NCBI GenBank assembly: GCA_001823695.1
Contig: MHVD01000002.1
Location: 15,215 to 79,214, forward strand
Origin: Candidatus Zambryskibacteria bacterium RIFCSPHIGHO2_01_FULL_43_25
GTDB lineage: Bacteria > Patescibacteriota > Minisyncoccia > Phycocordibacterales > Zambryskibacteraceae
DNA: 64,000 nucleotides
Direction of reading: 5' to 3'
The position numbers and the translations under genes were made by a program. Position 1 is the stretch's first letter. Every line of letters begins with the position of its first letter. This document shows positions 5,647-61,371 of the stretch, in pieces. The notes beneath the pieces were generated by a model. That model did not search any database. It saw only the letters and a program-made list of their open reading frames with translations, and was not told where the DNA came from.

Positions 5647-5920
5647 GATATCTATCAATCTTTTCGGCTTGCCCCGTTAGATAAATACTAAAATATCACC
5701 GTTTGTCTGACATGTTTTATTGCCGACGTAGAGCGAGGGTGCTGGAAAGTCAGCAGACTTTCCAGCACCGAGCCGAGGAGAGCAAAAAAAGGTTTAATGC
5801 CCCGCCCCTCTGGGGCGAACCCGTGCGAGCTCTCCGCCGGCTGGCGGAGAGCTCCAAATCGGGCCCAAGGTCCTGCCCTGGGGTTAATACCTTTTATTTA
5901 ATGGGGTATAATAAATACGT

Positions 5921-20187: not shown

Positions 20188-20260
20188 GCCACCTTAGCTC
20201 AGTTGGTAGAGCAACGCTTTTGTAAAGCGAAGGTCCCCGGTTCGAGTCCGGGAGGTGGCT
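20188..20260 (+). tRNA. tRNA-Thr (anticodon UGU)
   Basis: Cloverleaf: acceptor gccacct/aggtggc, D arm gctc-agttggta-gagc, anticodon stem acgct/agcga with loop ttTGTaa, T arm cccgg-ttcgagt-ccggg. CCA not encoded. Confidence 0.85.
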
Positions 20261-20272
20261 CAAAGACTAAAC

Positions 20273-20303
20273 AAAACCTCCGTTTAGAACGGAGGTTTTG
20301 TTT
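20273..20303. terminator. Bidirectional intrinsic terminator (tRNA on + strand, thioredoxin-like gene on - strand)
   Basis: aaaacctccgtt-tag-aacggaggtttt, flanked by T-runs on both strands. Confidence 0.75.
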
Positions 20304-29468: not shown

Positions 29469-31220
29469 TTATTTTCTATTGTTAATTTCTTCTTTGATTT
29501 GGCTGACAAAATCTTCTAGTTTCAAAGAACCGATATTACCTTTGTCTCTGCTTTCAACTGAAACATTTTTGTTTTCAATTTCTTTATCTCCGATAACGAT
29601 CCAGTAAGGGATTTTTTGCATCTTAACTCCGCGGACTTTCTTGCCAACGCTCTCATCTGAATTATCCAGTTCTGCCCTGATATTCTCTGCCATTAAGCTT
29701 TTTACCACCATCTGAACGTATTCTCTATGCTTTTCTCCCACTGACAAAACCTTTACCTGCACCGGGGAGAGCCAGATCGGAAACGCCCCAGCGTAATGCT
29801 CAATTAAAAAACCAATAAAACGCTCATGAGTTCCCAAGGGCGCGCGGTGAATGCACACAGGGGTCTTATCCTTTCCGTCTTTGTCGGTGTAAACTAGACC
29901 AAAACGACGAGGTTGGGCGAAATCAACTTGGTTGGTCGCCAATGTAAACTCGCGTCCAATAGCACTCCATACCTGCACATCAATTTTAGGTCCGTAAAAT
30001 GCAGCTTCATTTGGCACTTCAACAAACGGGATCTTGGATTCAATTAGAGTTTTGCGCACCATATCTTCTGTTTTTTTCCATAACTCTGGTTCGTCGACAT
30101 ACTTTTGGCCAAGATGTTTTGGGTCGTGGGTTGAGAAACGCATCAAATATTTTTTTATACCGAAAATCTGAAAGTAATTTATGTACATATCATTAACAGC
30201 TCTGAATTCGCTCGGAAATTGTTCCTCGGTGCAGTACATATGCGCATCATTCATCTGCAAAAATCTAACACGCATAAGCCCGAATAATTCTCCGGATTTC
30301 TCGTTTCGATATACCGTTCCGTATTCTGCGAGCCGCAGGGGCAAGTCGCGGTAGCTTCTCGATTCAGAAGCGAAAATCTTGTGATGATGAGGGCAGTTCA
30401 TTGCTCTGAGATAATACCTGCCGCCCTCGCATTCCATAGGCGGATACATACTTTCCTGGTAATAGGGAAGATGCCCGCTTTTTATGTACATTGATTCTTT
30501 TGCGATATGGGGGGTTCTTACCCTTTTATATCCAGCCTTAAACTCAGTTTCACTTGCCAACTTCTCAAGTTCCTCAATTATGACAGCTCCATTAGGAAGC
30601 CAAAGAGGCAGACCAGGTCCGACGTCGTCATCAAATGTAAAAATTTTCAGTTCTTTGCCAAGTTTCCTGTGATCTCTTTTCTCAGCTTCTTCTTGCTGTT
30701 TTATATAATCTTCAAGTTCTTTTTTATCATTGAAAGCCAATCCGTATATTCGGGTGAGCATTTGGTTTTTTTCATCTCCCCGCCAATAGGCGCCGGCAAT
30801 CTTGTCTAGTTTGAAAGAATCAGGTTTTATGTTTTTTGCGCTTTTTATATGTCCGCCTCGGCAGAGGTCGGTGAATTTACCCGAGGTGTAGAGCGTTATC
30901 TTTTCTCCCTTTCCCGCTATTTCATTGATAAGTTCTTTTTTATAAGGGTTATCTTTGTACAGAATCAGCGCTTCTTCTTGGGTTGTCTCGCGTCCTTCAA
31001 ACTTGTCCCAAGTCTTGAGGATGTCCCTCATTTTTTTCTCAATTACAGGTAATTCGCTGTCAGTTATTTTTCGGTCTTTGAAATCAAAGTCGTAATAAAA
31101 GCCGTTTTCAATCGCCGGCCCTAATGTAGGGAGTGCGTTTGGGTAAACTTCTAAAACAGCCGCAGCAAGCAAGTGGGAAAGGGAATGTCTTAAAACCCCG
31201 ATATCTTCATCTTTAGTCAT
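29469..31220 (-). CDS. thrS: Threonine--tRNA ligase (no N-terminal TGS domain)
   Basis: HSLSHLLAAAVLEVYP editing-domain start, class II core and C-terminal anticodon-binding domain. Confidence 0.9.
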   Translation of the reverse strand: MTKDEDIGVLRHSLSHLLAAAVLEVYPNALPTLGPAIENGFYYDFDFKDRKITDSELPVIEKKMRDILKTWDKFEGRETTQEEALILYKDNPYKKELINEIAGKGEKITLYTSGKFTDLCRGGHIKSAKNIKPDSFKLDKIAGAYWRGDEKNQMLTRIYGLAFNDKKELEDYIKQQEEAEKRDHRKLGKELKIFTFDDDVGPGLPLWLPNGAVIIEELEKLASETEFKAGYKRVRTPHIAKESMYIKSGHLPYYQESMYPPMECEGGRYYLRAMNCPHHHKIFASESRSYRDLPLRLAEYGTVYRNEKSGELFGLMRVRFLQMNDAHMYCTEEQFPSEFRAVNDMYINYFQIFGIKKYLMRFSTHDPKHLGQKYVDEPELWKKTEDMVRKTLIESKIPFVEVPNEAAFYGPKIDVQVWSAIGREFTLATNQVDFAQPRRFGLVYTDKDGKDKTPVCIHRAPLGTHERFIGFLIEHYAGAFPIWLSPVQVKVLSVGEKHREYVQMVVKSLMAENIRAELDNSDESVGKKVRGVKMQKIPYWIVIGDKEIENKNVSVESRDKGNIGSLKLEDFVSQIKEEINNRK

Positions 31221-31278
31221 ATCTAAATATTACACCGAAACATGGCTTATAAAAAGGTTATTTTAGGGTAATTTTTGC

Positions 31279-31308
31279 TTGACAGAATTATATAAAATAT
31301 GCTATAAT
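31279..31308 (+). promoter_or_regulatory. Consensus sigma70 promoter TTGACA-18-TATAAT with no downstream same-strand gene
   Basis: ttgacagaattatataaaatatgctataat. Confidence 0.5.
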
Positions 31309-31336
31309 TAAACATAGATAAGGGACTGTTAAATGA

Positions 31337-31385
31337 CCCGCCTAGTATCCGTCAGCTGACGGAGAACGGCGGGTTTCGTTTTTTC
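31337..31385 (+). terminator. Two-tier hairpin plus U-tract ending the short transcript from the orphan promoter
   Basis: cccgcc...ccgtcagctgacgg...ggcggg followed by tttcgttttttt. It encloses an 8-codon ORF (31333-31359, MTRLVSVS) preceded by AAGGGA. Confidence 0.45.
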
Positions 31386-31394
31386 ACATTTACG

Positions 31395-31436
31395 AACAAC
31401 GCATAAAAAACGCTATAGCGTTTTTTATGCGTTGTT
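31395..31436. repeat. 42-bp perfect palindrome (family member 1) between convergent transcription units
   Basis: aacaacgcataaaaaacgcta|tagcgttttttatgcgttgtt. Confidence 0.8.
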
Positions 31437-31444
31437 GTGCGGTT

Positions 31445-34400
31445 TTAAAAAATTCTTATTTTCTCAGCGATTATTGAAATAGAATTGTTTCTCTTTGAAA
31501 CAGAGCCGACGACTACCACGCAATTTTCGGGTTTTATTACCTCTTTAAATTCATTTAGAACTCTGGGAAAAACCACTACTTCCATAGAATCTGATAAATC
31601 AGCTATACGAACAAACATCATTTTCTCATTTCCTTTCGTAATTACTTCGCGCGCATCTTCAATAATTCCGGCTACTGTTGCTCGAAGGCCTTCGGGGAAC
31701 TCCTTTTTTATTCTGGCGATATTTACACTCCGTTCTTCAAGTTTACTCTTGTACTGGTTGAGCGGATGGCCTGAAATATAAAGTCCCAAGAGTTCCTTTT
31801 CCCATACCAGTTTGTCTTTTTCTGTCGCTGGTTTTGATTTGGATAGGGTCAACCTTGAAGTTTGTGAATTTTCAGACATCAAGCCAAACAAAGAATCTTG
31901 AGCTTTTACACCTTGGGCGCTTTCTTTGTGAAAAGTAAGCAAAGTTTCGAGATTTTGGAGCATCTGTCCTCTTTCGCCAAACTCTTCCAGCGCTCCCGCT
32001 TTGATAAGCGATTCAAGAGATTTTTTGTTCAAGTTTCTGTCTCCCACCCTCTCCAAGAAATCGGCAAGAGATGTGTATTTTCCGCCTTCTTTTCTTTCTC
32101 TAACAATTGATTGCGAAATTCCCTCGCCGAAGTTCTTTATCGTAGCAAGCCCGAATCTGATTTTGTCGGGGCTTCCAGCTCCTCTGACTACCGAAAACCC
32201 GCGGAAACTTTCATTGGCGCTTGGCGGCATAACAGGAATATTCATTCTTTTGCACTCTGATATTATCTCACCGACTTTTTCTACATCTCCGGAGTCGGCA
32301 GTGAGTACGGCTGACATATAGATAGCAGGGTAATTCGCTTTAAAATAAGCGGTTTGATAAGCAACCCGCCCATAACTTGCGGCGTGTGCTTTGTTGAATC
32401 CATAAGCGGCAAATGGTTCTATCCAAGTCCAGAGCTCCACAGCTTTTTTGTGTGGCCAATTGCTGTGGGAGATACAACCGTCTATAAATTTTTCCTTTTG
32501 TGCCACCATTTCTTTAGGAATTTTCTTGCCGACCGCCTTTCTGAATTTGTCCACCTCTCCCCAGGTATATCCGGCTATGTCTTTGGCAATAAGAAGAAGG
32601 TCGTCTTGATAAACAAGGACCCCGTATGTTCTCTCAAGTATTGGTGCAAGTGCCATATCAAGATATTTTATTAAAGATGGGTTGTGCTTCCTCTTTATAA
32701 ATTCTGGAATAAACTGCATTGGTCCCGGGCGATAAAGAGCAACCATCGCATTTATATCATGGATCGTTGAAGGTTTGAGTTCCATCAGGAATTTCGTCAT
32801 TGCTTCACCGTTGAGCTGGAACAATCCTTCTGTTTCTCCGCGGGCAAGTATGCTGAATGTTTTCGGATCATCAAGCGGGATATTTTCTGGGTCAATGAGT
32901 TTTTCTTCGATTGCCCTTATGCGGTCTACGGTATCAGCAAGTATTGATAGATTTTTTAGTCCCAGAAAGTCAAATTTAAGCAAGCCAGCATCTTCTACGC
33001 TGTACATATCGTATTGAGTAATGATTTTCCTTTCACCTTTTGGGTCGTACTGGAGCGGAACATAATCGGTAATATCAGTCGGCGAGATAATCACGCCAGC
33101 TGCGTGGACGGAAATGTGCCTGGCGCACCCCTCAATTTTCCTCGCCATGTCTATTACTTCTCTGACGTCGTCCTCCTTTTGGTATATATCTTTAAGCTCG
33201 GGGATCATCTCAAAAGCCCTATCAATTGTCATAGGGAAGCCTTGGGAACCAAAGGGCATAAGTCTGGCGATACGGTCGCCCGTGCTGTAAGGATAACCCA
33301 GCGCTCTAGCAACGTCTCTCACTGCTCCCCGGGCCATCATAGTTCCAAATGTTCCGATCTGGGCAACCTTATCTGCGCCATATTTTTGCCTGGCGTATTC
33401 AATCATTTCGTCACGCCTGTTGTCAGCGAAATCCATATCAATATCTGGGGGTGACGGTCTTTCCGGGTTGAGAAATCGTTCAAACGGCAAACCGTATTCT
33501 ATAGGATTTACATTTGTAATCCCGGCAAGATAAGTGACCATTGACCCGGCAACTGACCCCCTAATGTTTGTGAGGATTCCATTTTCATGCGCATACCTTA
33601 GCAAGTCACCGACAACCAGGAAATATGGAGCATAGCCCTTATCGTTTATGATTTTCAATTCATATTCTATTCTTTCTTCAACTTCTTTGGTTTTTTTCAG
33701 ACCTCTTTTGTCTAGGCCTTCACAAACCAATCGCCTTAATTCTTTGTCCGGGGAAAGACCACTTTCAACTTTGAAATCAGGGAAAACCCAGGAACCGAAT
33801 TTCAACTCGAGATTACAGCTCCCAACTATCTCGTCGACTGACGATAGGGCTTCGGGAATATTTTTAAAAGCTTCAGTCATCTGTTCTCTGTCTCTGAATG
33901 AAAAGTCCTTCTCTTCTTCGTCAAACTCATGTCGCCCCCTGTCGGAATTTGTTTGCACCGACATCAAAGTCTGCCAAGCTTTCTTATCTTCGGGATTTAT
34001 ATAAAAAATATCTTGAGCAGCGACAACCTTTATGTTTTCTTTTTTTGCAAATTCCAAAAGTTCTTTCATAAGTTCAGCATGACCGGGAATTTCTGGGTGG
34101 TAAGTTAATTCAATGAAGAAATTTTTTCTACCAAAAATATTTTTGTACCGGTCAGCAATATCAGTCGCTTTTTTTCTATCCTTGTTGCGCAGAGCTTTGG
34201 CGATTTCTCCGGAGTTGGAAGGTGATATGGCCGTTAGTCCTTCGGAGTATTTCTCCAGTAGCTCTTTATCAATTCTCGGCTTGTAATAAAATCCTTCCAA
34301 GTGCGATAAGCTGGTGAGTTTTATTAGGTTTTTATAACCTGTCTCGTCCCGCGCCAACAATATCAATCTGAATCTTGTATTGTCTACACCGGCCTGCTTG

Positions 34401-34630
34401 TCGTGTCTTGTTCGCAACGCAACATAAGCATCCACTCCTATTATCGGTTTGATGTCGTTCTTTTTGCACTCCTGGAAAAATTCAATCGCTCCGTATAGAT
34501 TCCCGTTGTCAGTCAAAGCCAGCGCTTTCATGCCAAATTTTTTTGCCGCAGAAACCAATTCCGGTATTTTAGGCAAAGCGCCCAAGAGACTATAGTGGCT
34601 ATGGGTATGGAGATGAGAGAAGGAAGACAT
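31445..34630 (-). CDS. dnaE: DNA polymerase III alpha subunit
   Basis: PHP domain HLHTHSHYSLLGA, polymerase core and OB domain. Start taken at the internal ATG (MSSFSHLH...). Confidence 0.9.
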   Translation of the reverse strand: MSSFSHLHTHSHYSLLGALPKIPELVSAAKKFGMKALALTDNGNLYGAIEFFQECKKNDIKPIIGVDAYVALRTRHDKQAGVDNTRFRLILLARDETGYKNLIKLTSLSHLEGFYYKPRIDKELLEKYSEGLTAISPSNSGEIAKALRNKDRKKATDIADRYKNIFGRKNFFIELTYHPEIPGHAELMKELLEFAKKENIKVVAAQDIFYINPEDKKAWQTLMSVQTNSDRGRHEFDEEEKDFSFRDREQMTEAFKNIPEALSSVDEIVGSCNLELKFGSWVFPDFKVESGLSPDKELRRLVCEGLDKRGLKKTKEVEERIEYELKIINDKGYAPYFLVVGDLLRYAHENGILTNIRGSVAGSMVTYLAGITNVNPIEYGLPFERFLNPERPSPPDIDMDFADNRRDEMIEYARQKYGADKVAQIGTFGTMMARGAVRDVARALGYPYSTGDRIARLMPFGSQGFPMTIDRAFEMIPELKDIYQKEDDVREVIDMARKIEGCARHISVHAAGVIISPTDITDYVPLQYDPKGERKIITQYDMYSVEDAGLLKFDFLGLKNLSILADTVDRIRAIEEKLIDPENIPLDDPKTFSILARGETEGLFQLNGEAMTKFLMELKPSTIHDINAMVALYRPGPMQFIPEFIKRKHNPSLIKYLDMALAPILERTYGVLVYQDDLLLIAKDIAGYTWGEVDKFRKAVGKKIPKEMVAQKEKFIDGCISHSNWPHKKAVELWTWIEPFAAYGFNKAHAASYGRVAYQTAYFKANYPAIYMSAVLTADSGDVEKVGEIISECKRMNIPVMPPSANESFRGFSVVRGAGSPDKIRFGLATIKNFGEGISQSIVRERKEGGKYTSLADFLERVGDRNLNKKSLESLIKAGALEEFGERGQMLQNLETLLTFHKESAQGVKAQDSLFGLMSENSQTSRLTLSKSKPATEKDKLVWEKELLGLYISGHPLNQYKSKLEERSVNIARIKKEFPEGLRATVAGIIEDAREVITKGNEKMMFVRIADLSDSMEVVVFPRVLNEFKEVIKPENCVVVVGSVSKRNNSISIIAEKIRIF

Positions 34631-34723
34631 GCCCAGATATAATATCAGGTAAAGCGGCGGAAACAGCGCTTCTTCGTGGAAATCTAATTGACAGAGAGAG
34701 CTTATGGCATCTATCATGTATGT

Positions 34724-36341: not shown

Positions 36342-36362
36342 CCCGGATCTTCGGATGTATGT

Positions 36363-36400
36363 GCCCCAGCGCGCTTTCGCGCGCTGGGGCATTGCTTTTT
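36363..36400 (+). terminator. Intrinsic terminator
   Basis: gccccagcgcgc-tttc-gcgcgctggggc followed by attgcttttt. Confidence 0.7.
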
Positions 36401-40638: not shown

Positions 40639-40765
40639 TTTGTGACACGCTATTAGGCATAAGCGATAAGCGTTGTGAAATAGCATTTTGCAATGGGGGC
40701 TTATAGTTTACCGTTTTCTCACTCGTTTAAATATTGTGTAGTAATAGCTATTTGGTTTAGTTTAT

Positions 40766-40805
40766 CAACTATATCCCTTATTCGCGCGAATAAGGGATAT
40801 AGTTG
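40766..40805. repeat. 40-bp perfect palindrome with GCGC centre
   Basis: caactatatcccttattcgc|gcgaataagggatatagttg. Confidence 0.85.
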
Positions 40806-40885
40806 GGAGTGGTTTTAAATTAAAGTAAATTAAGGCGAAAACATCTAGATATAATTGTATTTATCAGCTGATGGAAACATTTCGT

Positions 40886-40923
40886 ATTCTATTTGATATT
40901 TTGCGCAAAATATCAAATAGAAT
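40886..40923. repeat. 38-bp perfect palindrome with GCGC centre
   Basis: attctatttgatattttgc|gcaaaatatcaaatagaat. Confidence 0.85.
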
Positions 40924-40969
40924 GCTGGATTAGCGAGTAATAGTTAACGTTAAATTTTTTAAGCACAAA

Positions 40970-41000
40970 CCCTGACGTAACAAGTCCCGTTACGTCAGGG
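40970..41000 (-). terminator. Intrinsic terminator (GACGTAAC hairpin family) for the minus-strand GC-rich gene
   Basis: ccctgacgtaac-loop-gttacgtcaggg; on the minus strand it is followed by tttgtgctt. Confidence 0.6.
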
Positions 41001-41017
41001 TGGCCACGGGGGTCAGT

Positions 41018-41401
41018 TCACAGTTCCATACATGCTCTGATGAACTTCTCAGTGATTGCGTACCGTCCGTCGGTGAACAATACGAGGTATGGCGGTGCAT
41101 CCGTCCACTCTTCTCTGTTGGCCTGCTTGAGACTTGCATCGTCGTACCACACTCCGGACAGTCCGAAAAACATCAAGTCTGGGTCCCAACCTTGAGAGTT
41201 GTAGAACTCAACCAGCTCCCGAATCGTAAATCTGGTCCACTCTCCACGTGATCTGAAGAAAAGGAGCAGTTTGGCGGCGGCGACCTCAACCTCATGCTTG
41301 CCAAACCTCCCTACCGCGAGCCCTCTCATCTCGATTTGCAATGGAGTTGACAGTTTGAGGGCGGCCGCGTCCGAATTGCTCCATACCTCTTGGGTGGTCA
41401 T
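41018..41401 (-). CDS. Hypothetical protein on a GC-rich cassette (~56% GC)
   Basis: AGGAGG RBS before the internal ATG (MTTQEV...). No recognisable domain. Own terminator. Confidence 0.4.
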   Translation of the reverse strand: MTTQEVWSNSDAAALKLSTPLQIEMRGLAVGRFGKHEVEVAAAKLLLFFRSRGEWTRFTIRELVEFYNSQGWDPDLMFFGLSGVWYDDASLKQANREEWTDAPPYLVLFTDGRYAITEKFIRACMEL

Positions 41402-44254: not shown

Positions 44255-44512
44255 TTGGAGGAGGGTACGATGGAGAGAAACACAGTCGGTAGCCGCGGCG
44301 CTCTGAATCACGAGTACTGCCGGAGCGAATCACTTGGCTGGATGAGGATTTTGATTGTCCTCATCGAATATCCCTTTTTCGTGTTTCTTACCGCACTGGG
44401 AGTCGTCGCTTTCTTCTTACTTGGTTCAATTCTGGTGGTTGTATTCGGCTGGCGGAATTTGCTCTCGGATGCTAGGGAGTCTACCGACTCTCTCTTTTGG
44501 ACCGATTCCTGA
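44255..44512 (+). CDS. Hypothetical small membrane protein
   Basis: Strong RBS, one long hydrophobic span, followed by a very strong terminator. Confidence 0.45.
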   Translation: MEEGTMERNTVGSRGALNHEYCRSESLGWMRILIVLIEYPFFVFLTALGVVAFFLLGSILVVVFGWRNLLSDARESTDSLFWTDS

Positions 44513-44530
44513 CATGGCCCACAACTTGCA

Positions 44531-44576
44531 AACCGCCCCCGTTTCGCCCTAGGCGAGACGGGGGCGGTTCTTTGTT
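44531..44576 (+). terminator. Intrinsic terminator (~18-bp GC stem)
   Basis: aaccgcccccgtttcgcc-ctag-gcgagacgggggcggtt followed by ctttgtt. Confidence 0.75.
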
Positions 44577-45641: not shown

Positions 45642-45675
45642 CACAAACGCCCCCGAGCGGGGCGTTTGTGTTTTC
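45642..45675 (+). terminator. Intrinsic terminator
   Basis: cacaaacgcccc-cgagc-ggggcgtttgtg followed by ttttctc. Confidence 0.7.
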
Positions 45676-59500: not shown

Positions 59501-59596
59501 ATATACTCCCTGTCGTTTTGGGACAAGAGGTGTGGGGATCGCAATTGCGAGTATTGCCGCTTAAGAGGGTCAATAAGCGCCGCCGAGCTTCACTGA
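56585..59596 (+). CDS. UvrD/PcrA-like SF1 helicase fused to a C-terminal PD-(D/E)xK (Cas4/AddB-like, 4-Cys) nuclease
   Basis: Walker A AGPGTGKTS, motif II ADEHQD. C-terminal RVVDYKTGKP nuclease motif and Cys cluster C...C-x4-C-x2-C. Confidence 0.7.
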   Translation: MSEISFENAYKKLNKEQREAVDTVEGPVMVIAGPGTGKTSILTLRIANILRRTDTSPGSILALTFTESGVHSMRRKLVEIIGPAAYRVGIFTFHGFCNEVMRRFPDCFERILGGHLATEVDQIKVVENIIRDGKFHHLKLFGNNFFYARPALQSIRSLKRENITPKEFSGILAEKQKEFDSFPNLYHERGQYKGRLKGRYAELQKKIEKNRELSSLYLSYEKALKKDNLYDYEDMIIEVVLALEKNNDLLLMLEEEYQYILADEHQDANNAQNKILLLLSSFHKSPNLFIVGDEKQAIYRFQGASLENFLYFKKKFKDAQVIRLPINYRSTQKILDASHTLIMKAGDSNHSLRRRLIAKNKKLGRAIKFYEFESADAEPLFLITDIEKKIESGVTPSDIAVLFRDNNDAVPIVQVMEKTDIPFLVLSSDDVLEDSLIRQYIALLKAVNNFGNDDYLSRVLFAEFLSIAPLDAYRINKYAHTRRLGVSAVLESRNELARSGVTDKIKFKKLYSDMSRWSKVAKNDGLLSSAEKIARESGFIDYLMSQKNSVSNFEKIDALFRQMRSIVETHRDYTLADFIEYISVLENHSIRMEIPYRPVFKTGVHLMTAHRSKGLEFKYVYIVGAYDGHWGNRRAVVHFHLPITGKPLIGFDEDEDERRLFYVALTRAKDEVVITSSKWSKDNKPRLPSRFVEEIDMKFLEKVSPVPEKELSKLKEGLIHKTPQGGAGVDDAEYLRNLFLDQGLSVTAVNNYLECPWKFFFQNLIRVPKNPEKHQLYGTAVHEALKYFFDKYKDGYNPTLKDLKDWFSIAVSRKPLSQNDFAEALDRGGKALAGYFKKYNKLWPRAIINELAIAGVFIPIDGGKKILLRGILDKVEFISGSEVRVVDYKTGKPRSRNDILGKTKGSKGNIGRQLDFYNVLLQDYENGKYRMKEGMIDFVEPNDQGNYRQEKFEANGQDAEELKNLIKKIASEIYSLSFWDKRCGDRNCEYCRLRGSISAAELH

Positions 59597-60303
59597 ATGC
59601 CTTGGTTGAGAAGAGCCGCGTCAATGATGGTTTTCATCACATCATAGGGCTGGCCGCCTTCTATGGCGATTCTTTCTCCGCTTCTGGTGACAAGTATGCT
59701 ATAAGGAGTTCCTCCGGCTCCGGCCAATACAGCGTCTTGGAAGTCTTCTTGGATTTTGTTTGCATATTTGCCGCTTGAAAGACAGGATTCAAAATCGGAA
59801 ACTTTAATTCCAACCTCGTCCGCTATTTTGGGCAACTCGCTAAGATCAAGTCCGTTATTTGACGGGGTCTTTGCAAATAATGCGTCAATATAGACCCAGA
59901 ATTCTTCTTTGCCTCCAAGCTCTGCCGCGCACTCCGTAGCTTCCGCTTCTTTTCTGGCTTTGGAATGCAGACTGTCAATGGGGAAGTGGCGATACACCCA
60001 AGCCAGTTTTCCGTCCTTGCCGTACTCATCTATCAGACGGTGCATCGTATTGTGGAAAGTTTTGCAGAAAGGGCACTCCGTATCGGAGTATTCAACTATC
60101 ACGACTGGCGCGTTCGGATTGCCCAATATATGGTCATCCTCGCTCACCGCGCGTATATTTATGCCGCGCACCACGCTGTCATCGTTATTGAATATCTTGG
60201 AATCAGTTTGCCGGTTTGAAAGATAAAACCCAGCACCCACCAAAGCGCCGGCTAGAATGATTGCTACCGGTAGCATAAACGGACTGCCTTTTTGTGTTTC
60301 CAT
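59590..60303 (-). CDS. DsbA-like thiol:disulfide oxidoreductase, membrane-anchored
   Basis: N-terminal TM and CPFC active site within a thioredoxin fold. Confidence 0.65.
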   Translation of the reverse strand: METQKGSPFMLPVAIILAGALVGAGFYLSNRQTDSKIFNNDDSVVRGINIRAVSEDDHILGNPNAPVVIVEYSDTECPFCKTFHNTMHRLIDEYGKDGKLAWVYRHFPIDSLHSKARKEAEATECAAELGGKEEFWVYIDALFAKTPSNNGLDLSELPKIADEVGIKVSDFESCLSSGKYANKIQEDFQDAVLAGAGGTPYSILVTRSGERIAIEGGQPYDVMKTIIDAALLNQGIQ

Positions 60304-60434: not shown

Positions 60435-60486
60435 AACAAAACAACACATAAAAACCGCTATAGCGGTTTTTATGTGTTGTTTTGTT
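60435..60486. repeat. 52-bp perfect palindrome (family member 2) in a divergent promoter region
   Basis: aacaaaacaacacataaaaaccgcta|tagcggtttttatgtgttgttttgtt. It shares the core with the 31395-31436 palindrome, differing by compensatory substitutions. Confidence 0.8.
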
Positions 60487-60570: not shown

Positions 60571-61371
60571 ATGTCTTTTTTTGAAGCGACAATCCTAGGC
60601 CTGGTTCAGGGCCTTGCCGAGTTCATACCAGTTTCATCTTCCGGCCATCTTATCTTGGCCAGAGAATTTTTCAGCCTCGCCAGTTTTGAAGATTTGGCGG
60701 TTGACGCCGTGCTTCAGCTGGCGACCGCCCTGGCCGTACTTTTATATTTCCGCCGCGATGTCCTGTCTCTGCTTCGGACTTTTTTCAGATGGATCGGACG
60801 AAAACCCGTCTCGGATACAGATTCAAAAATGTTATTAGCTATAATTATTGGCACTATACCAACAGTGGTATTCGGGCTTCTTCTTGAGAATTATATGGAA
60901 ACAGTTTTCAGGAACGCATCCTTGGTAGCGTTGGCACTTCTAGCCGGAAGCGCGTTGATGATGTTTGCCGAAAAGCGCTTCAATAGCTCTGCCGTTAAAG
61001 AAATTTCGGCCAAGATGGGATTCTTCGTTGGTCTTTTTCAGTCTCTGGCTTTGATACCCGGGGTATCGCGTTCCGGTGCAACGATTTCCGGAGGGTTATT
61101 AAATGGTTTAAGCAGGGTAGAAGCGGCGCGTTTTAGCTTTCTTCTGTCTTTGCCCATAATCTTGGGTTCAGGAATTAAAAAACTTCTTGAACTTAATATA
61201 GGAGGCTCTCTCTCCGATATCGGTTTGCCACTTCTCCTTGGGGCAGTAGTTGCTTTCGTATCAGGTTTTTGGGCTATAAAATTCCTTATAAATTATCTGA
61301 AAACCAGAACTCTCAATGTATTTATCATTTACAGAATTGTTCTGGCTGTTTTGATTTTTATTCTTTTGTAA
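60571..61371 (+). CDS. uppP: Undecaprenyl-diphosphatase
   Basis: GLVQGLAEFIPVSSSGH... and ...PGVSRSGATISGG BacA motifs. Confidence 0.85.
   Translation: MSFFEATILGLVQGLAEFIPVSSSGHLILAREFFSLASFEDLAVDAVLQLATALAVLLYFRRDVLSLLRTFFRWIGRKPVSDTDSKMLLAIIIGTIPTVVFGLLLENYMETVFRNASLVALALLAGSALMMFAEKRFNSSAVKEISAKMGFFVGLFQSLALIPGVSRSGATISGGLLNGLSRVEAARFSFLLSLPIILGSGIKKLLELNIGGSLSDIGLPLLLGAVVAFVSGFWAIKFLINYLKTRTLNVFIIYRIVLAVLIFILL

Follow-up and report, generated by a model that had tools for sequence, protein, structure and literature searches.

A putative small RNA transcription unit in the thrS–dnaE spacer of a Candidatus Zambryskibacteria genome

What is a perfect-consensus promoter doing on a strand on which no gene follows it? 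The question is raised by a mini unit in the 224-nt spacer between thrS and dnaE (31221–31444) of Candidatus Zambryskibacteria, an uncultured groundwater CPR/Patescibacteria MAG, of which a stretch of 64,000 nucleotides (hereafter designated the window) was analysed. To our knowledge, almost nothing is known about RNA-based regulation in the CPR/Patescibacteria with their tiny genomes, and a search of the literature on leaderless and Shine-Dalgarno (SD) usage in Patescibacteria and on CPR small RNAs retrieved nothing relevant. Against this background, a 70-nt RNA transcribed from the best of the promoters in 64 kb would offer a concrete candidate. A previous inspection of the letters (hereafter the sequence-only reading) had stated that no plus-strand gene follows the unit and that dnaE is antisense to it; both statements hold, and thrS also lies on the minus strand (Table 1). 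With both neighbours on the minus strand, the unit (~70 nt) is self-contained and divergent from thrS. Indeed, no plus-strand gene was found within 3 kb upstream of the unit, downstream of which there is just the antisense dnaE, and the thrS–dnaE spacer contains no plus-strand ORF of at least 20 aa.

Table 1 Features of the thrS–dnaE region of the window and positions of the antisense units in two related loci.
Feature	Position	Strand	Remarks
thrS (threonine-tRNA ligase)	29469–31220	-	Pfam tRNA_SAD, tRNA-synt_2b, HGTP_anticodon
Probable leaderless thrS promoter TG-T-AATATT/TAATAT	31221–31236	-	directly before the thrS ATG (31220)
A/T-rich tract upstream of the promoter	31247–31278	+	
Sigma-70-type promoter	31279–31308	+	-35 at 31279–31284, extended -10 TG at 31300–31301, -10 TATAAT at 31303–31308
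Predicted transcript start	A31314–G31317	+	6–9 nt after the -10
Unstructured A/G-rich 5' tail AUAGAUAAGGGACUGUUAAAU (~20 nt)	31314–31334	+	unpaired in the centroid structure
8-codon ORF MTRLVSVS*	31333–31359	+	ATG ACC CGC CTA GTA TCC GTC AGC TGA
Intrinsic terminator	31335–31384	+	two-tier hairpin 31335–31375, then tail UUUCGUUUUUU 31374–31384
Perfect 42-nt palindrome (arms AACAACGCATAAAAAACGCTA and TAGCGTTTTTTATGCGTTGTT)	31395–31436	.	8 nt past the dnaE stop codon
dnaE (DNA polymerase III alpha subunit)	31445–34717	-	Pfam PHP, DNA_pol3_alpha, finger, HHH_6
Antisense mini-unit	L010 5810–5930, L011 5620–5740	-	

The plus-strand promoter (31279–31308), which had been described as a perfect TTGACA-18-TATAAT, indeed matches the consensus at 12/12 positions and carries TG-n in its 18-nt spacer, so that every element of a sigma-70-type promoter (TTGACA, a spacer of 16–18 nt, TATAAT, and the optional TG) is present. 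Moreover, it is the sole 12/12 match on either strand of the 64-kb window, in which only 0.03 such matches are expected by chance; any match at all occurred in just 3 of 100 shuffles. On paper, it surpasses the promoters of the tRNA-Thr gene and of all protein genes in the window. Real genes are preceded by near-consensus promoters of this type, for example at the divergent pair 22275/22288, indicating that the sigma-70 consensus applies in this organism.

The two-tier hairpin noticed previously was recovered by folding (31335–31375), with a minimum free energy of -25.5 kcal/mol (z = -2.7) that was equalled in 3 of 200 shuffles. It consists of an 8-bp outer stem (31335–31342/31368–31375) and a 6-bp inner stem (31348–31353/31358–31363), separated by a 5x4 internal loop and closed by the loop AGCU. 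The U7 tract ascribed to it has to be corrected: the tail TTTCGTTTTTT (31374–31384) corresponds to U3-CG-U6 and has at most six U in a row. Almost symmetric, the hairpin can form on either strand; its U tract is found on the plus strand only. In a scan for hairpins followed by a U tract, the site 31335–31384 scored -24.6 kcal/mol, starting 26 nt after the -10, and was among ~10 sites at or below -23 kcal/mol over 128 kb (both strands). Comparable sites lie just past real genes (36357–36395, 44531–44569, 45642–45670, and 20269–20303), where the hairpins are equally long and GC-rich and sometimes two-tier as well (e.g., 36357–36395 and 44531–44569). Thus, 31335–31384 combines a G+C-rich stem-loop, a U tract, and a same-strand promoter upstream, as an intrinsic terminator does, and, because there is no plus-strand gene around, a plus-strand terminator at this place makes sense only with a plus-strand promoter. 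We infer that a perfect promoter with a strong hairpin and U tract starting no more than 50 nt away is expected at ~1e-4 per window, and conclude that the co-occurrence of the promoter and terminator signals is real and non-random.

The neighbouring thrS promoter has a different layout. In every relative examined, thrS is preceded by an extended -10 (TGnTAnnAT), followed by 6–13 nt and then the ATG, and thrS is probably leaderless both here and across the clade; its mRNA would then not overlap the mini unit. The thrS promoter and the mini-unit promoter stand back to back, ~45 bp apart. Among the 55 genes of the window, 14 show a leaderless layout (a 5/6-or-better -10 hexamer 4–10 nt before the start codon; 0–7 in shifted controls), and 7 show an SD-like motif. 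The genes of this organism are thus largely SD-less, and the counts suggest that leaderless mRNAs are frequent.

What, then, would the unit produce? The sequence-only reading had left a choice between a small RNA and a micropeptide within a self-contained transcription unit of ~60–70 nt; the plus-strand sequence logic supports such a unit, and the small RNA is the better function. We tentatively favour, with slightly less than even confidence, the reading that the unit is an independent, lineage-specific gene for a small non-coding regulatory RNA. Thus, the consensus sigma-70 promoter, with its extended -10 and A/T-rich upstream tract, would fire divergently from the leaderless thrS promoter, and transcription, as predicted from these signals, would begin at ~31314–31317 and end ~70 nt later at the intrinsic terminator. 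The product would be an RNA of 66–72 nt, composed of the ~20-nt unstructured 5' tail AUAGAUAAGGGACUGUUAAAU and the very stable two-tier terminator hairpin with its U tail. Presumably, the RNA itself is the active product, acting through the 5' tail.

In its simplest form, a base-pairing regulatory RNA consists of a single-stranded 5' tail joined to a terminator hairpin and its U tail, and minimal terminator-ended members of this class have a 5' single-stranded seed and an intrinsic terminator directly after it. The unit possesses the independent promoter, the terminator, and the single-stranded region expected of a base-pairing small RNA (sRNA), and resembles the minimal members in its strong promoter of its own, its length of ~70 nt, its unstructured 5' tail, its terminator hairpin and U tail, and its intergenic site divergent from a housekeeping gene. 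It differs from them in that no homologue was found, no chaperone is known in the lineage, and the copies are all identical. The RNA would have no structured body of its own, because the hairpin is just a normal terminator. When the 5' tail was paired in silico with 52 gene starts, representing ~7% of the genome, the best duplex energy was -17.2 kcal/mol (gene 36718); with the 1st percentile of the background at -15.8 kcal/mol, this best of 52 is about the chance level and not significant. As a target of the 5' tail, thrS was rejected: its 10-nt match to codons 11–14 (direct repeat D3) gave only -12.6 kcal/mol, which falls within the background.

Five other assemblies of the same population contain the unit without a single base difference, and it is, therefore, not an assembly artefact; as all available copies are identical, neither covariation nor seed conservation can be demonstrated from them. 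No ThrRS relative between 100% and 75% identity was found in a collection of 5.8 billion proteins. With the nearest relatives at just 75% ThrRS identity, intergenic homology is expected only if it is selected, and conservation of the promoter hexamers cannot be fairly judged, the more so as the whole unit is absent at the syntenic site. The genome and metagenome scans with ThrRS were seeded narrowly by exact peptides and returned mostly Chloroflexi and few CPR loci. Among the relatives, RNase HII, dnaE, thrS, and gyrB follow one another in a widely conserved order, and the unit was absent from the syntenic site in the seven nearest lineages, all of which retain the dnaE–thrS synteny. Homology searches gave a similar picture. 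The window spacer yielded nothing beyond promoter words against the spacers of 18 relatives in blastn-short, and a covariance model of the 72-nt unit (R1) retrieved only itself from the window and 46 related loci (468 kb), with the next best hit at E = 1.4. In Rfam 15, the tRNA-Thr at 20188 was the sole above-threshold match in the window; apart from it, nothing was obtained over the whole window at the gathering threshold or at E ≤ 0.05, nor in the spacer at E ≤ 10, and membership of a curated RNA family was accordingly rejected. The best plus-strand scores in the spacer (rimP leader, 19.9 versus 47 bits; isrK, 15.8 versus 50 bits) mostly reflect hairpins. An exact-pattern scan of viral contigs for the hairpin gave no match, and BLAST of the spacer against phage records retrieved promoter-like A/T matches only. 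On this evidence, the unit is a single-species, unconserved promoter–terminator pair, for which "putative sRNA" is a reasonable annotation rather than a discovery.

Although the unit itself is absent from the relatives, their dnaE–thrS spacers are far from uniform. In six of them (L085, L017, L018, L024, L081, and L084) the spacer measures only a few tens of bases (68 nt in L085), L088 contains larger insertions, and four others have antisense ORFs with their own promoters and terminators (113 aa in L087, 128 aa in L090, 129 aa in L015, and 86 aa in L173). These cassettes share the position and orientation of the unit and contain real ORFs, whereas the window has room for 8 codons only. No similarity was found among the ORFs of L087, L090, and L015, a comparison from which L173 was left out. 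Judged from these layouts, the dnaE–thrS spacer appears to be a hotspot for antisense insertions.

The closest counterpart of the unit was found in two uncultured Paceibacteria-type MAGs, CAZYBH01 and CAZPKQ01 (L010 and L011), whose ThrRS are 91% identical to each other and ~67% identical to the query. Antisense in their dnaE–thrS spacer lies TTGA(A/C)T-17/18-TTGCTATAAT, followed after 7 nt by ATGACAAGTTT and then by an intrinsic terminator; the 8-codon ORFs encode MTSLVQHY* and MTSFAVCY*, respectively. The blocks TTGCTATAAT-7 nt-ATGACAAGTTT and TACTAAGnGAGGCA are identical between L010 and L011, whereas the 12 nt between them and the terminators differ. This mini-unit had no match in Rfam. 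It resembles the window unit in its spacer, antisense orientation, near-consensus promoter, 8-codon ORF starting with ATGAC, and intrinsic terminator, which in L010 is also two-tier, with the outer arms ACCGC/GCGGT. On the other hand, its ATG lies 7 nt after the -10, as in the leaderless layout, in contrast to 24 nt in the window unit, and its transcribed sequence cannot be aligned with that of the window unit and was missed by the covariance model. It may thus be regarded as an analogue, for which homology cannot be called, a further reason being that the middle of its ORF diverges between L010 and L011 (see below). Nevertheless, its antisense promoter, short transcript, and terminator indicate that small antisense units recur in the dnaE–thrS spacer.

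In L011, the promoter TTGACT-18-TGCTATAAT, antisense to thrS (5684–5810 of CAZPKQ010000010.1), is located in a segment of 85 bp that has on either side a 21-nt inverted repeat; the two repeats are 90% complementary and contain ATGACAAGTTTCGCC. An invertible promoter has such a layout, and the flipping of this one would aim the promoter at thrS; L010 has the promoter without the repeats, and the window unit also lacks any comparable repeats. An inverton was accordingly rejected for the window, where no inverted repeat brackets 31279–31308 and only short A/T-rich pairs occur (e.g., 15 nt, 87%, reaching into the palindrome).

A broader generalisation, to which we give little credence, is that the dnaE–thrS spacer of Paceibacteria-type CPR may repeatedly host strong antisense mini units controlling the leaderless thrS. 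The window unit, the L010/L011 unit, and the possibly invertible L011 promoter may be examples, and control of thrS could be exerted via divergent transcription or a small RNA. If this were true, the window unit would be one of the earliest candidates for a regulatory sRNA in a CPR organism. The interest of the locus depends on transcripts that confirm the unit, or on antisense mini-units at thrS proving to be a general regulatory device.

The turnover of the spacer leads to the best surviving alternative to the small RNA gene, which we nevertheless consider rather unlikely: antisense cassettes would come and go between dnaE and thrS, only a promoter and a terminator having been retained or acquired here, and the RNA would have no function of its own, so that only the act of head-on, divergent transcription might matter. 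The antisense ORFs of 86–129 aa in L087, L090, L015, and L173 at exactly the same position, together with the almost empty spacers of the six relatives named above, fit such a leftover, as do the lack of conservation of the unit and an RNA that would be made up solely of a short tail and the terminator. However, neither the 12/12 promoter with its TG nor the terminator, both of them perfect, shows signs of decay, a streamlined genome of ~1 Mb is expected to shed useless DNA, and no residual similarity to the cassette of any relative remains. In a version in which transcription alone is of use, the unit would shield thrS from read-through out of dnaE, or provide the weak leaderless thrS promoter ~45 bp off with negative supercoils. 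Read-through from dnaE is plausible, since the palindrome (31395–31436) lacks a proper minus-strand U tract, and this speaks for insulation, although the insulating and supercoiling effects are alike purely conjectural.

It is improbable that promoter and hairpin merely coincide in an A/T-rich spacer, with the hairpin serving the minus strand, for example in processing or stability of the dnaE–thrS transcript. Perfect promoter matches arising at 0.03 per window will turn up when many windows are screened, and the near symmetry of the hairpin, which allows it to fold on the minus strand, and the lack of conservation are in keeping with such a coincidence. Nevertheless, the inferred joint expectation of ~1e-4 per window is far lower, the U tract occurs on the plus strand only, and the promoter match is strengthened by the TG of the extended -10 and by the A/T tract upstream.

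Still less probable, and in our view very unlikely, is a coding role of the unit, as a micropeptide gene or as a translated leader, in which MTRLVSVS would be made or a ribosome would melt the terminator and control read-through. The sequence-only reading had placed AAGGGA and the ORF ~25 nt past the promoter; more exactly, it is the ATG that lies 24 nt after the -10. The micropeptide attached to this ORF is weakly supported. An ATG with an in-frame stop behind a strong promoter and an unstructured 5' region could favour translation, as could UAAGG 9 nt upstream, given that a few window genes use a GGAGG-type SD, and the antisense units of L010 and L011 also have 8-codon ORFs, with an MTS start 7 nt after the -10. 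However, the AAGGGA (31320–31325) 7 nt upstream of the ATG is a poor SD and, with SD-like motifs in only 7/55 genes, no evidence of translation. The ATG is not at the transcript start, where a leaderless mRNA would have it, and the mini-ORF has neither of the initiation signals typical of this genome, namely, a -10 box adjoining the ATG or a GGAGG-type SD, and only UAAGG upstream; together with the distance of 24 nt from the -10, this argues against a protein gene. Moreover, from the G of its ATG onward, the ORF is buried in the terminator hairpin (31335–31375; -25 kcal/mol). Between L010 and L011, codons 4–7 differ at 8 of 12 bases with identical flanks, which is not the pattern of a conserved peptide and indicates that nucleic-acid motifs are conserved rather than the peptide.

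The overlap of the ORF with the terminator also recalls the leader-peptide transcription attenuators that occur in amino-acid and aminoacyl-tRNA synthetase operons (thrL and pheM type). Like these, the unit has a very short ORF overlapping an intrinsic terminator beside an aminoacyl-tRNA synthetase gene. Unlike these, it points away from thrS with no gene following on its strand, so that read-through would run into the palindrome and on antisense to dnaE; the ORF for MTRLVSVS contains a single Thr codon and lacks any repeated stretch of regulatory codons; and there is no antiterminator, the only alternative pairing being that of the A-rich tail with the U tail. An attenuator was thus rejected, with just one defining feature present, that is, the ORF (31333–31359) within the hairpin (31335–31375).

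Several further identities were tried and rejected. A T-box leader or ThrRS operator would be on the wrong strand, with no T-box match and an apparently leaderless thrS. A tRNA-Thr mimic recognised by ThrRS does not fit either, the anticodon arm CGCU/AGCG and loop UUUGUAA being unlike the CCGUC-AGCU-GACGG hairpin. A cis-antisense RNA to a thrS 5' UTR would find no overlap with a leaderless thrS mRNA unless dnaE read-through provided it. Descent from a gene was likewise rejected, as the relatives' antisense ORFs that were compared (L087, L090, and L015) are mutually unrelated and blastn-short of the spacer gave only promoter words. The thrS promoter of a further relative, L172, shares ATGCTATAATTAAA, followed by GGACT...ATG, with the mini unit; 9 of these 14 bases represent the extended -10 consensus. 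An inverted copy of a thrS promoter was nevertheless rejected and the likeness judged to be convergence, because the window thrS has its own promoter and there are no flanking inverted repeats. In the same L172 locus (contig_79000, ERZ25039512), positions 1–1172 upstream of thrS encode, instead of dnaE, an RVT_1 reverse transcriptase and bAvd, the signature of a diversity-generating retroelement.

The perfect 42-nt palindrome next to dnaE begins ten nt beyond the terminator of the mini unit and is probably the dnaE terminator and a back-stop for the plus-strand unit. A second copy was found at 60439–60482, between the divergent starts of a DsbA-like gene (59590–60303, minus strand) and uppP (60571–61371, plus strand), where it overlaps a -35-like TTGTTA. 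In each arm, two positions distinguish this copy from the first, both changes being compensated, and the pair defines a family with the arms AACAAC(G/A)CATAAAAA(A/C)CGCTA and TAGCG(T/G)TTTTTATG(C/T)GTTGTT. The existence of a second copy elsewhere indicates that the palindrome belongs to a small repeat family and is not simply the dnaE terminator; the family could represent a terminator, an operator, or a REP-like element. A search of 171 related loci and of viral contigs revealed no further copies. Other perfect palindromes crowd a non-coding stretch of ~630 nt (40640–41270), namely, 40766–40805 with 20-nt arms, 40886–40923 with 19-nt arms, 40853–40882, and 40939–40958, and the same stretch contains a strong minus-strand hairpin with a U tract (41001–40969). 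Finally, a 625-nt apparent gap elsewhere in the window was found to contain a probable gene for a membrane protein of 80 aa (MERNTVGSRG..., 44271–44514), which falls below both the 90-aa and the 100-aa length cut-offs of the ORF lists used. It has a clear Shine-Dalgarno sequence, GGAGGAGGG, and downstream of it lies the strongest terminator of the whole window (44531–44569, -37.5 kcal/mol).
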